Of a stretch of 32,087 nt of DNA, positions 18,567 to 22,368 are shown piece by piece. Within the stretch, counting starts at the first letter, position 1. Every line of letters starts with the position of its first letter. The position numbers and the translations under genes were made by a program. Source of the stretch: Thermodesulfobacteriota bacterium (lineage in GTDB: Bacteria > Desulfobacterota > Desulfobacteria > Desulfobacterales > SURF-7); assembly GCA_049320885.1 (NCBI GenBank), contig JBMORA010000003.1, forward strand, positions 1 to 32,087. The letters run 5' to 3'. The notes under the pieces were generated by a model that saw nothing but the letters and a program-made list of their open reading frames with translations, was not told where the DNA came from and ran no database searches.

Positions 18567-19526
18567 TCACCTCCCTTGAATCGTGGCGGGCCGGTGATAT
18601 TGCAGAAACCGGCCATCGGCATCCAGGGTCGCGGTCACTCCCAGCGGCAGAGTGAGATTCCTCTTCCCATGTCCGAAGTCGAATCCGGCCAGCATCGGTA
18701 TATTCATGTCGCTGAATACTTTTGTAAAAACCGGATAAATATCCTCTGCGGGACCGCAGTCGGTGAAAGACCCCAGCGCCAGCCCGGCCAAGCCCCTGAA
18801 TATTCCTGCCAGCTTCATCTGGATAAGCATGCGGTCGATCTTATAGGGAGCTTCCTGTACATCTTCCAGAACAAGGATGCAGCCGCCGAGACGCGGTGCA
18901 TGCGGGGTGCCCACCAAATGGCAAAGGGACGCCAGATTGCCCCCCATGACTTTTCCCGACGCCACGCCCGGATTCAGGGTCAGGGGTTTTTCGGGAACGA
19001 CCAGCAGTTTTTCCCGGGGATCAATCGCCTTAAGAAGAGCCTTTTTCGTTTCCGCATCCGCTCTTGCAAGCGTCGTCACCATCGGCCCGTGAAAGACCGC
19101 CATCCGGCCGGACCGGCACAGAAACGCCAGCAGTACCGTGATATCGCTGAATCCGACAACCATTTTCGGATTGCCGCGGATGAGTTCCAGATCCAGAAGA
19201 TCGAGAAGGTGGATGGAACCGAATCCCCCCCGGGCACACATGATGGCGTTCACATCCTTGTCGGCAAACAACCGGTTCAAGATGGCGGCGCGGTGGGTGT
19301 CGTCGCCGGCAAGATACCCCTCCCTGCGATCCAGTCCGTCCGGGACCTTGATCCGGAAGCCCATTTCTCGCAACACGTCGAGACCCTTGTCGAATTTCTG
19401 TCGGTCAAAGGGCCCCGCCGGCGCGGCGATACCGATGGTATCCCCCCGGGACAGGTTTCGCGGCCGACGAATCCGGTCCCGTGTTGGCTTCATGCGGCTC
19501 TGCCGCTTCTCGGCTAGCGAATTCAT
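18567..19526 (-). CDS. LD-carboxypeptidase (peptidase S66)
   Basis: ARGGFG, VGFSDIT (catalytic Ser), GGNL, LED, FGHG. Start is ATG 19526 or 19493; the ORF-track start overlaps the tRNA. Confidence 0.92.
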   Translation of the reverse strand: MNSLAEKRQSRMKPTRDRIRRPRNLSRGDTIGIAAPAGPFDRQKFDKGLDVLREMGFRIKVPDGLDRREGYLAGDDTHRAAILNRLFADKDVNAIMCARGGFGSIHLLDLLDLELIRGNPKMVVGFSDITVLLAFLCRSGRMAVFHGPMVTTLARADAETKKALLKAIDPREKLLVVPEKPLTLNPGVASGKVMGGNLASLCHLVGTPHAPRLGGCILVLEDVQEAPYKIDRMLIQMKLAGIFRGLAGLALGSFTDCGPAEDIYPVFTKVFSDMNIPMLAGFDFGHGKRNLTLPLGVTATLDADGRFLQYHRPATIQGR

Positions 19527-19554
19527 TGCAATCCACTTTCTTGTCAGGTATTGC

Positions 19555-19583
19555 TTGACAGACAATATCGATGGTGTTAGGAA
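19555..19583 (+). promoter_or_regulatory. tRNA-Pro promoter
   Basis: TTGACA, 17 bp spacer ending in TGn, TAGGAA, 13 nt before the tRNA. Confidence 0.6.
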
Positions 19584-19595
19584 GCAAAGTCTCAG

Positions 19596-19674
<79 letters not shown>

Positions 19675-19684
19675 CAAAAACATT

Positions 19685-19714
19685 GGGTTACGGGTCAACC
19701 GCAACCCTTTTTTT
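19685..19714 (+). terminator. intrinsic terminator after the tRNA
   Basis: GGGTTACGG-GTCAA-CCGCAACCC followed by T7. Confidence 0.75.
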
Positions 19715-19887
19715 ATTCCGTTTTTATCGGGGCGCCAACCGGTCACCCCATATCGGCCAAATCGCCACGGCTGTTGCCGGGTTCTTCCTTCCTGAACCAC
19801 CCCGCATACAAATATAGAAAAGTACCACATTTTGCAAGACCGGTTTCGGCTTCCATCGCAAACCCCATAACCCACCGCTGGCGGAAG

Positions 19888-20634
19888 CTATTTCCGTTGC
19901 CCCCGAAGCGTTTGGACGCTGTAGCCCCAACCCTTGCATGACGGCACGTCGATCAGAATCAGTTCAGCCGGCTGCTCTGCCTTGAGAACCAGCGGCGTGT
20001 CGATGTCGATCCGGGCCTGGTCCTTGCTTTTCAGGAGCTCTCCATTTGCCGAGACCCTCCCCGCGGTCAGGTAGACAAAAAGCCGGCGGCCGGCAGTCGC
20101 CTCCTGGACCACCCCCTTACCTTCATCCAGGGCACATCGGTATATCGTGGCATCTGTGTGGAAAGTCACCGTTCCCGGGATGTTCCGGCCGGAAGCCACC
20201 GGCAGCAGCCGGTTCCGCCACTCGTCGGCGACGTATTGCTTCTGGTCGTAGGTCGGCTTCAGCCCGCGCTTGTCGGGAAATATCCAGATCTGATAGAAAT
20301 GCACAGGTTTGTCGGCCAGATTGAACTCGGAATGGGTGAGACCAGTTCCCGCCGACATGCGTTGGACATCGCCGGCTTTGATGACGGTTTTGTTTCCCAT
20401 GCTGTCCTGGTGAGTCATTTCCCCGTCCAGCACGATCGTGACGATCTCCATTTCCTCGTGGGGGTGGGTCGGGAACCCTGCACCGGGTTGCACAACGTCG
20501 TCGTTGAACACCCGAAGCGCCCCGAACTGGATGTTGTGCGGGTCAAAATAATCCGCAAACGAAAACAACCAATAAGTCTGCAACCATCCAAAATCCGTGA
20601 AATGCCGCCTATCGGCCCTGATGATCTCGATCAT
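19888..20634 (-). CDS. pirin family protein (YhhW-like bicupin)
   Basis: FGALRVFNDD, GFPTHPH, EIVT, HQDSMGN, MSAGTGLTHSE, QIW. SD GGAG favours ATG 20634. Confidence 0.93.
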   Translation of the reverse strand: MIEIIRADRRHFTDFGWLQTYWLFSFADYFDPHNIQFGALRVFNDDVVQPGAGFPTHPHEEMEIVTIVLDGEMTHQDSMGNKTVIKAGDVQRMSAGTGLTHSEFNLADKPVHFYQIWIFPDKRGLKPTYDQKQYVADEWRNRLLPVASGRNIPGTVTFHTDATIYRCALDEGKGVVQEATAGRRLFVYLTAGRVSANGELLKSKDQARIDIDTPLVLKAEQPAELILIDVPSCKGWGYSVQTLRGQRK

Positions 20635-20650
20635 ACGCCACTCCATTTTA

Positions 20651-20673
20651 GGGGTCAGGTCTACACTTTTGAC
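20651..20673 (+). repeat. left terminal inverted repeat
   Basis: GGGGTCAGGTCTACACTTTTGAC. Confidence 0.92.
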
Positions 20674-21605
20674 TTAATTTTTTCTACTATAATTTCAATT
20701 TCTTGAAAAAGACCTTTATCCTCCAGAATTTGCCTGCCCAGTCGCCGACTGGCCTGGGAGACAGCCGACTCACCAATCCCGAAATGACTGCCGATTTCCC
20801 GCAACGGTTTCCCAGAATATCGATGACTCACATAGAGAGCAATCCGTTTCGACAAATACCGATCCATCCCGAATCGATCGTCAACCGCTTTTATGATTAC
20901 CGGAATGCCGGGCCTCTCGATCATTTTTCCAATGGCCGGGATATCCCGTTCCTCTTCTCTACCCTGAAGATGACGATCTTTTACCTCCTGGATAAAATTT
21001 TCATCCCCCAGTATCGTGGCCGCGTAAACCCCATCCAGAGGATTGTAGTGTTCTTCTTTGATCATCTTATTGACGAACGATCGATATTGTTTCCGTGCGT
21101 TCAAGTCCTTTTCGCCCATATATCCGAGGATAAAGCCGCATTTGAGCCACGCCGGCGGTTTTGTCTTTCCGATATAGGCGGCGTAACTGGACCACTGGTA
21201 TTGTTCCGGCTTTTCTACGATTCCGGCCCTCACGGGATTCAAATGAATATATCGTGATAATTCGGTGGCATAAGAATCACCGTCTATCAGGTAGGCCTTA
21301 TACCGCCCCTGGAAAAGATGCCCGGATCGTTTGTGCTTGGTGTTGAAATAGGTTGTGTAAGCTCCGTTGATATGCCGCATTATCCGGGACAGATTTCCGG
21401 CCGGCGTCTCCAACAAAATATGGAAATGGTTGTTCATAAGGCAGTAGACATGGATGACGGCCTGGTATCGTTCGGTGGCGGTTGCAAGATAGATTAAAAA
21501 CCGTTCGCGATCCCGGTCGCTTTTAAATATGGCTTTGCGCTCGTTACCCCGGCTGGTAACATGGTAATAGGCACCTGGATATTGGATTCTCAAGGGTCGG
21601 GCCAT
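20661..21605 (-). CDS. RAYT/IS200-superfamily Y1 transposase with C-terminal HTH
   Basis: MARPLR..PGAYYHVTSRGN, YCLMNNHFH (HUH), GHLFQGRY, RYIHLNPVRAG (catalytic Tyr), WSSY; C-terminal LREIGSHFGIGESAVSQ HTH. Confidence 0.93.
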   Translation of the reverse strand: MARPLRIQYPGAYYHVTSRGNERKAIFKSDRDRERFLIYLATATERYQAVIHVYCLMNNHFHILLETPAGNLSRIMRHINGAYTTYFNTKHKRSGHLFQGRYKAYLIDGDSYATELSRYIHLNPVRAGIVEKPEQYQWSSYAAYIGKTKPPAWLKCGFILGYMGEKDLNARKQYRSFVNKMIKEEHYNPLDGVYAATILGDENFIQEVKDRHLQGREEERDIPAIGKMIERPGIPVIIKAVDDRFGMDRYLSKRIALYVSHRYSGKPLREIGSHFGIGESAVSQASRRLGRQILEDKGLFQEIEIIVEKIKSKV

Positions 21606-21648
21606 GGAGTTGCCTCATGGTGGCATCTGGTTCATCTGAAGCGGAATC

Positions 21649-21677
21649 ACTCTATGGCAATCCGGCAGGTTTGTCAA
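21649..21677 (-). promoter_or_regulatory. putative transposase promoter
   Basis: TTGACA (21677-21672, mostly inside the right TIR), 17 bp spacer, TAGAGT (21654-21649). Confidence 0.6.
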
Positions 21678-21695
21678 GAGTGTAGACCTGACCCC
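21673..21695 (-). repeat. right terminal inverted repeat
   Basis: GTCAAGAGTGTAGACCTGACCCC; reverse complement is GGGGTCAGGTCTACACTCTTGAC. Confidence 0.92.
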
Positions 21696-21704
21696 AAAAA
21701 GATC

Positions 21705-21739
21705 TTGACTTAGAATTTTATTCTGGAATATTATTCTAA
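21705..21739 (+). promoter_or_regulatory. tetR promoter with overlapping tandem palindromic operator
   Basis: TTGACT (21705-21710), 18 bp spacer, TATTAT (21729-21734), overlaid by AGAAT-TTT-ATTCT and GGAAT-ATT-ATTCT. Confidence 0.65.
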
Positions 21740-21753
21740 TTAAGTGAGGGCCA

Positions 21754-22368
21754 ATGGGACGGAACGAACAGACGCGGAAGCGTCGCGCCGAGGTAATTGA
21801 AGCTGCCTTGAAATGTTTTCAGGAGTTGGGTTACGCCAAAACAACCATGGCGGATATCCGCCGGCATTCGTCCGCCAGCACGGGAAGCATTTATCATCAC
21901 TTCAGGAGCAAACAGCAGCTTGCGACAGCGGTTTATTTCGAAGGTGTTAAAAACTATCAGGAAGGACTGCTCCGGGTATTGGCAGCGGAAAAACAGGCCC
22001 GGAAAGGAATCCGGTCGATTGTGGGGTATCATCTCCAATGGGTGAGCGATCATCCCACATGGGCTCGATATTTAACGGAAATGCGCCATGCGGAATTCAT
22101 GGATGGCGCCGAATCCAGGTTCAAGGAGTTGAACGCCCATTTCGCCGCCGGCATCACCACCTGGGTGTCCGGCCACATGAAAGCCGGACGCCTCAAGCCC
22201 GTATCCCGGGACGTGTTCATCGCCCTGCTCCTTGGTCCCTGCCAGGAATATGCCCGGCAATGGCTCGCCGGCCACGCGGTGCTGGAACCCACCGCTGCCG
22301 CCGCCGCAATGGCGGAACCGATCTGGCGCTCCCTGCAAGGAAACCAACGGGAGGAAAACCATGACTGA
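21754..22368 (+). CDS. TetR/AcrR family transcriptional regulator
   Basis: AALKCFQELGYAKTTMADI...STGSIYHHFRSKQQL N-terminal HTH. Confidence 0.95.
   Translation: MGRNEQTRKRRAEVIEAALKCFQELGYAKTTMADIRRHSSASTGSIYHHFRSKQQLATAVYFEGVKNYQEGLLRVLAAEKQARKGIRSIVGYHLQWVSDHPTWARYLTEMRHAEFMDGAESRFKELNAHFAAGITTWVSGHMKAGRLKPVSRDVFIALLLGPCQEYARQWLAGHAVLEPTAAAAAMAEPIWRSLQGNQREENHD

Follow-up and report, generated by a model that had tools for sequence, protein, structure and literature searches.

Gene, protein and ends of the element

The element described here occupies positions 20651-21695 of the window, i.e. the whole 32,087-nt stretch of DNA that was analyzed. It is 1045 bp long, with a G+C content of 48.5% compared to 55.8% genome-wide, and carries an open reading frame of 314 aa on the reverse strand (20661-21605), the TIRYT gene. 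Residues 12-121 of the encoded protein (21243-21572, reverse strand) constitute a HUH/Y1 catalytic core, which matched the Pfam model Y1_Tnp (E 6.6e-16) and contains H60, H62 and Y119, the last of these forming a class-2 Y---NP motif with N123 and P124. An alignment of 121 sequences showed no variation at H60 and Y119 and at least 90% conservation of H62, N123 and P124. The protein scored 89.8 bits with the REP_Tyr_transpos model NF047646, above its cut-off of 80, and 17.5 bits with the IS200-class model NF033573, far under the cut-off of 55.

The C-terminal part of the protein (approximately residues 234-313; 20667-20906, reverse strand) is a predicted helical tail resembling domain IV of DnaA. 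In Pfam, it gave a sub-cut-off match to a Bac_DnaA_C-like HTH (E 0.013). A profile of the 121-sequence alignment matched the tail to the DnaA domain IV chain 1J1V (E 2.3e-8) and the core to TnpA_REP 4ER8. The AlphaFold model (pLDDT 96) has helices in the tail. When this model was used in Foldseek, the best match was again TnpA_REP 4ER8, with the core, whose fold is closest to TnpA_REP and IS608/ISDra2; the tail matched the fold of DnaA-DBD 3PVP with an rmsd of 2.3 over 93 columns. Residues 276-288 (20742-20780, reverse strand) form the predicted recognition helix, whose sequence changes in step with that of the repeat from one family member to another.

The element is bounded by terminal inverted repeats at 20651-20673 (downstream end, forward strand) and 21673-21695 (upstream end, reverse strand), identified by a sequence match of the two arms at 22 of 23 positions; with the outer T-runs included, the match covers 28 nt at 93%. 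A head of the GGGGWSAS type, GGGGTCAG, is present at both ends, and the GGGGTCA head of the downstream repeat faces outward. The flanks, CATTTTA and AAAAAG, form no direct repeat around the element. The stop codon of the TIRYT gene sits within the downstream (left) repeat, and the TGA of this repeat is the stop of many family frames. A predicted transposase promoter directed into the gene (21649-21677, reverse strand) takes its -35 hexamer from the inner part of the upstream repeat; it is a sigma-70-like match by consensus only, at 10 of 12 positions with a 17-nt spacer. Within the family, TTGAC was found at 82 of 138 upstream ends compared to 45 of 136 downstream ends. An earlier note, made from the sequence alone, had described a RAYT-like gene inside 22/23 inverted repeats with TIRYT-like GGGGWSAS ends and no target duplication, a description that was confirmed here.

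The element almost certainly belongs to an already named class, TIRYT/TIRtron, which is subclass 2.1.2 in Quentin et al. (2018). In the available text of Di Nocera, De Gregorio and Rocco (2013; PMC3733652), RAYT-like genes between GGGGWSAS inverted repeats, the motif being printed there as found here, are named TIRtrons; some members have a gene end that runs into the repeat, and the repeats are also found as single, dimeric and grouped copies. That text offers neither evidence of mobility nor data on junctions, cut site or binding. TnpA_Y1 subclass 2.1.2 is characterized, in the accessible part of PMC6006769, by the class-2 Y---NP motif, a long protein, a C-terminal Bac_DnaA_C-like HTH and the lack of REP hairpins, and equals RAYT Group 1 (excerpts of Bertels et al., 2017; PMC5581495). 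The element has the HUH motif with its catalytic Tyr, the Y119, N123 and P124 of subclass 2.1.2/RAYT Group 1, inverted repeats in place of REPs, and the GGGGWSAS head, and extra repeats were found as well, four in its own genome (G000) and dimers and arrays in metagenome loci. No difference from the class as given in the available text of these sources would exclude it. In itself it is unremarkable within this class, which received its name in 2013 and is common in its phylum.

Three other assignments were rejected. For a REP-associated RAYT (Groups 2 and 3), the folding of the repeat is marginal, compensatory changes are lacking in all 23 altered heads (see below), and its six copies in 5.6 Mb are not the high copy number of REP families. 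Moreover, the tetranucleotide GTAG, which the earlier note had pointed out and which does occur in this repeat, is present at only 30 of 274 family ends; it is not supported as a family feature, and a role as guide was discarded. IS200/IS605 elements (IS608, ISDra2) have the HUH/Y1 core and the absence of target duplication in common with the element; their subterminal hairpins differ from each other and lie on one strand, and their 4-5 nt sites are guide-paired (PMC8266576, as far as its available text goes). The length of 314 aa, the low NF033573 score, the symmetric repeats and the absence of a fixed target motif, the outer flanks of family ends having mild A/T richness only, count against this assignment. 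DDE-type IS were rejected on account of the HUH core and the absence of target duplication.

Distribution and mobility of the family

Loci were taken from 60 relatives, from 80 of 267 genome matches and from 119 of at least 120 metagenome matches to the repeat, and further loci from 109 of 267 matches in a sample of 401 genomes of the phylum, 133 of which contain a TIRYT homolog. Full-frame loci were defined by a frame of at least 255 aa, a match starting by residue 12 and 170 nt of flank; the 171 loci obtained contain a small number of orthologous sites, and one locus was retrieved in duplicate. As the family loci are related and derive mostly from MAGs, the counts overstate independence. An inverted-repeat pair was detected in 151 of the 171 full-frame homologs compared to 0 of 60 shuffles, and 140 loci could be anchored on a GGGGTCA-type head. 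In the family, the repeat is also found solo, in tandem arrays and, in 27 pairs measuring 52-301 bp, as inverted dimers, i.e. MITE-like pairs of the kind that the earlier note had proposed to look for do exist.

A genome search for the repeat, likewise proposed there, returned six copies with at most two mismatches in the 5.6-Mb, 98% complete assembly, for which approximately 4e-4 23-mers are expected under uniform base use. This excess, together with the repeat pairs of the homologs, shows that the repeat is not a chance occurrence. Besides the two arms there are four copies, all intergenic: solo repeats at C22:15710-15732 and C2:32295-32317, and a 31-bp tandem pair at C7:13526-13579. No partner with fewer than eight mismatches was found within 1.5 kb of the solo repeats. 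The C22, C2 and C7 copies each end in TTGACA, a possible -35 box, and the head of the C22 solo lies 17 nt from a ribosome-binding site. The same genome contains two other RAYT-like genes, one at C48:73879, with a GGGGTCA head and a duplicated tip, and one at C13:43295-44254, with 32% identity over near full length and no GGGGTCA-type head nearby. Elsewhere in the family, two TIRYT genes stand in tandem at L303 (G236:C5:3307-5329) and at L036, and a 98%-identical element was found in L068:47-1120 and L069:1912-2985, records labelled as a Woesearchaeota archaeon and a bacterium, which reflects either cross-domain transfer or mis-binning.

Comparison of closely related copies indicates that the TIRYT family is very likely mobile. 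In genome G088, two copies (L330 and L335) are 98.6% identical over 1076 nt and have unrelated flanks, sharing 7 nt outside the left end and 4 of 5 nt outside the right end. Near-identical pairs at different sites were likewise found at L266/L268 and L304/L309, and in approximately 11 more pairs, with 80-94% identity, homology stops at or near both repeat heads. A further three ends that are nearly identical (94-99%) and a mini-element of 75 bp are present in G088. The site occupied by L330 is empty in all 13 congeners, in which the flanking genes are adjacent, with gaps of 55-230 nt in the 12 displayed. At family level, these observations agree with the earlier view that this is a mobile kind of element. 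A base-level empty-site junction was not obtained at the G088 site, where the intergenic DNA is too variable, nor for any other element. In the congeners (L370-L382), this site carries variable palindromic arrays of 7-nt units unrelated to the terminal repeats.

The copy in the window looks intact, as the earlier note had it; the autonomy also claimed for it did not receive the same support, this copy being single in its genome with no empty allele found. Orthologs of the neighboring pirin gene (six loci) and tetR gene (three loci) were never neighbors among the 60 relatives, and the contigs of sequencing runs X1-X4, which drop rare variants and of which X1 may be the source sample, contained no joint removing the element. 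No empty alleles of the solo and tandem repeats at C22 and C7 were found either, five relatives being too distant and the runs holding no variant. A contig from run X2 has a joint, 20674-21671, with both repeats around 21 foreign bases, and matches the window only over the repeats; it is probably a mini-dimer of this repeat type located elsewhere.

Homologs are rare on plasmids (2 of 72,556 records at E 1e-30), and none of 50,697 phage records matched (E 1e-15), which counts against wide vector-borne spread. In the available portion of PMC5581495, RAYT Group 1 is described as the most IS-like true RAYT group, with the top RAYT duplication rate (6.2%) and 1.2% of members on plasmids. In the available text of Quentin et al. 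(PMC6006769), recognition of the repeat by the HTH is left undecided, and no mobility was evident for subclass 2.1.2. The comparisons reported here support both and in this go further than the papers cited. Our literature search, whose coverage excluded most subscription journals, returned no later or experimental study on the TIRYT/TIRtron class, which has apparently never been bench-tested.

Probable reading of the repeat and breakpoints outside it

Co-variation suggests that the tail helix is likely to read the repeat, a statistical coupling as distinct from binding. In 54 nearest-neighbor pairs and with overall distance removed, the divergence of helix 276-288, chosen beforehand, tracks the divergence of repeat positions 8-24, with a partial rho of 0.58 for the upstream repeat alone, 850 bp away, and of 0.67 for the downstream repeat; control positions 30-46 gave values of about 0 and 0.15. 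When 13-residue windows were moved along the protein, the best one started at residue 277 (0.57), compared to a 99th percentile of 0.50 and a maximum of 0.61 for the best window in permutations. With 109 of 120 rows used, helix types, DYS and HYT among them, correspond to repeat types. Relatedness was the main contributor to per-column mutual information, the top pair of which was residue 278 and repeat position 14. Of the two modes of binding offered in the earlier note, this favors recognition of dsDNA by the HTH; pairing of the ends as one ssDNA stem lost ground for the reasons given below.

No target duplication was detected in 138 elements, in which the longest direct match between the 30-nt flanks averaged 4.43 compared to 4.39 for shuffled flanks, and matches reaching 7 nt occurred in 3 of 138 compared to 3.5% expected. 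Some ends of relatives carry tandem duplications of the tip instead. Exact tandem duplications spanning the head, with a period of 7-60 (the minimum of 7 censors short units), were scored at 451 non-redundant ends, one mis-anchored element having been dropped, and at control anchors 150-400 nt outside. They were present at 59 of the 451 ends, compared to 2 of 2326 control anchors, with 33 among 291 discovery ends and 26 among 160 ends added later by protein similarity. They affect both ends (23 upstream, 17 downstream, 19 unassigned), which behave alike, so cuts would be on opposite strands. The element's own ends carry no such stutter.

The outer limit of these duplications is tightly placed. 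In the 55 of 59 with an ambiguity of at most 3 nt, the outer start has a median of 8 nt outside the first G (SD 2.2) and lies 5-12 nt out in 50 cases. The inner ends are variable (SD 7.8), with 28 in the G-run (up to position 4), 19 at positions 5-8 and 8 beyond position 8. The 22 unambiguous junctions revealed neither a dinucleotide rule nor microhomology. Longer rearrangements share the outer limit: a 417-bp unit at L364, comprising a whole mini-element and with an assembly gap in the second copy, starts 9 nt outside the head and may represent a duplication or a circle junction, and alleles of one site (L015/L016 and L047/L051) differ by indels of 63 bp and 15 bp ending approximately 8 nt outside, L047/L051 having at first been taken for separate insertions. 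The 31-bp tandem at C7 starts 5 nt outside and fits the stutter pattern; a contig with its junction is present in run X1. In close end pairs with unrelated distal flanks, at least four outside bases were common in 13 of 34, several of these being alleles of one site, compared to 1.1% of 11,020 control pairs, and 17 of the 34 share none.

The earlier note had placed the ends at the outer G of each repeat, which is probably wrong. Since the breakpoints in relatives cluster 5-12 nt further out, the exact empty-site junction that it predicted is unlikely to exist. For the present element, the predicted break zones are 20639-20646 (forward strand; from relatives, with no footprint at this end), which overlaps the ribosome-binding site of the pirin gene, and 21700-21707 (reverse strand; likewise from relatives), which abuts a promoter match of tetR. 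Copying of one flank onto the other through a panhandle was considered and set aside: outward inverted matching beyond the repeats is limited to the first 1-2 nt (0.54 vs. 0.33 and 0.43 vs. 0.34), possibly an anchoring effect.

Proposed mechanism, alternatives and genomic neighborhood

The tight outer boundary combined with a variable partner would be expected from a fixed phosphotyrosine end joined to differing 3'-OH ends. In HUH chemistry, the enzyme stays on the 5' side of the nick and a 3'-OH is freed (available text of PMC3333891). In the mechanism that we propose, and to which as a whole we give about an even chance, the DnaA-type HTH tail would bind each inverted repeat as dsDNA, and the HUH core would nick the GGGG-reading strand in the A/T-rich flank at a ruler distance of approximately 8 nt outside each end. 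The nicks at the two ends would fall on opposite strands, and both 5' ends would carry the enzyme. The 3'-OH of the flank would be extended inward and then attack the phosphotyrosine, duplicating the tip, as in the nick-extend-rejoin model proposed for BIME amplification (PMC3333891, Fig. 7B legend). With a resected or distant 3'-OH partner, neighboring DNA would be deleted, a long duplication or a circle would form, or the element would reach a new site, a few donor bases being taken along and no target duplication being made. The preferred inner stops, at repeat positions 1-3 and 6-7, could reflect stalling of the polymerase where the protein is bound or, alternatively, second nicks in the opposite strand. 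We infer the nick, its strand and its products, strand and polarity being read from the shape of the breakpoint histogram only.

A broader proposition is more tentative, possible rather than probable. TIRYTs may be a large family of true insertion sequences using an undescribed pathway, in which a HUH enzyme with a DnaA-type helix reads duplex repeats, cuts by ruler beyond both ends on opposite strands, caps the two 5' ends and joins them to 3'-OH ends irrespective of motif, thereby moving, seeding mini-elements and trimming neighboring DNA. If true, a single-strand nuclease family would have been re-tooled for duplex ends like those of classical IS, with junction rules of its own, and deletions, duplications and promoter capture in anaerobes and soil bacteria would have in it a source that has been overlooked. 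Two predictions follow from the comparisons, namely a cut approximately 8 nt outside each end and a swappable helix-to-repeat code. Under the proposed mechanism both TIRYT ends act alike on opposite strands, unlike those of IS608. Rolling-circle HUH elements of the IS91 type also join a 5'-phosphotyrosine end to a 3'-OH, with displacement synthesis, one-ended products and no target duplication; however, they use Y2 enzymes, their ori and ter ends differ from each other and their target tetranucleotide is fixed, whereas the ends are symmetric here and no target motif was seen.

The main alternative, itself rather unlikely, retains the same HTH binding but places the primary nick inside the repeat, ahead of TGACCCC on the opposite strand (7|8), with the inner 3'-OH extended outward and rejoined, or with a staggered double-strand cut. 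The inner ends of the duplications indeed peak at two places, positions 1-3 and positions 6-7, and the second peak is also seen in L239 and L240, which belong to a family whose head is different. The truncated L068 element has lost its head at 6|7, and the sequence at this site in the window, CC^TGA, resembles the E. coli iREP type I cut site (available text of PMC3333891). The 19 duplications ending at positions 5-8, whose outer start is looser (SD 2.9), are fitted equally well by this alternative. However, the other 36 of 55 end elsewhere with the outer start kept, the 417-bp unit and the adjacent indels have only the outer break in common, and 50% of ends have G at position 8 and 41% have A, so that C^T is not kept. 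A version with two nicks is compatible with the mechanism of nicking outside the ends.

Action on ssDNA in the manner of IS200/IS605 or RAYT enzymes, with a small hairpin per repeat or the arms paired as a long stem and a single-strand circle excised, is less probable still. The core is closest to TnpA_REP and IS608/ISDra2, and all TnpA_REP enzymes assayed in the available parts of PMC3333891 and PMC8266576 require ssDNA. E. coli TnpA_REP shares the core fold (4ER8), and its REP repeats likewise occur solo, as dimers and in tandem, so the solo, dimer and tandem copies of the TIRYT repeat resemble REP/REPIN/BIME arrays; it differs, as far as these sources go, in binding a folded ssDNA hairpin with GTAG, in cleaving C^T over long distances, and in having no HTH tail and a REPtron that is apparently immobile as a unit. 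The breaks in TIRYT relatives appear to be set by distance and not by a dinucleotide. In favor of ssDNA action, arms belonging to the same element are identical at 21.0 of 22 positions, compared to 16.9 for arms of different elements (33 elements), the repeat has weak palindromic character, with a TGAC tail in 119 of 239 GTCA heads, and the ends fold 0.6 kcal/mol better than shuffles. The hairpins are nevertheless marginal (mean -1.4 kcal/mol, both strands alike), none of 23 altered heads has a compensating tail, the -35 box accounts for the TGAC tail and GTAG is rare; a hairpin reading of the repeat was rejected on these grounds. The footprints on opposite strands at the two ends and the helix that tracks the repeat sequence also speak against action on ssDNA. 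Domestication as an immobile RAYT-like gene, with the repeats serving the HTH solely as autoregulatory operators and replication slippage accounting for the tip duplications, is highly improbable given the near-identical copies at different sites of one genome, the site empty in all 13 congeners, the 22 junctions without microhomology and the rate of duplication relative to the control anchors.

In the window, the downstream end of the element lies 16 nt before the likely start of the pirin gene (19888-20634, reverse strand), which has the same direction. A different TIRYT (30% identity; L239:1696-1711, G016:C6) ends 13-14 nt before a pirin homolog in genome G016, and the same element as that of G016 is located approximately 700 nt from pirin in G017. 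The presence of TIRYTs beside pirin may be due to chance, a hot spot or promoter capture. A tRNA-Pro(GGG) gene, the sole Rfam match over 19400-22000, is found at 19597-19673 (forward strand), approximately 1 kb to the left of the element, and the pirin gene, the element and tetR may belong to an island starting at this tRNA gene.
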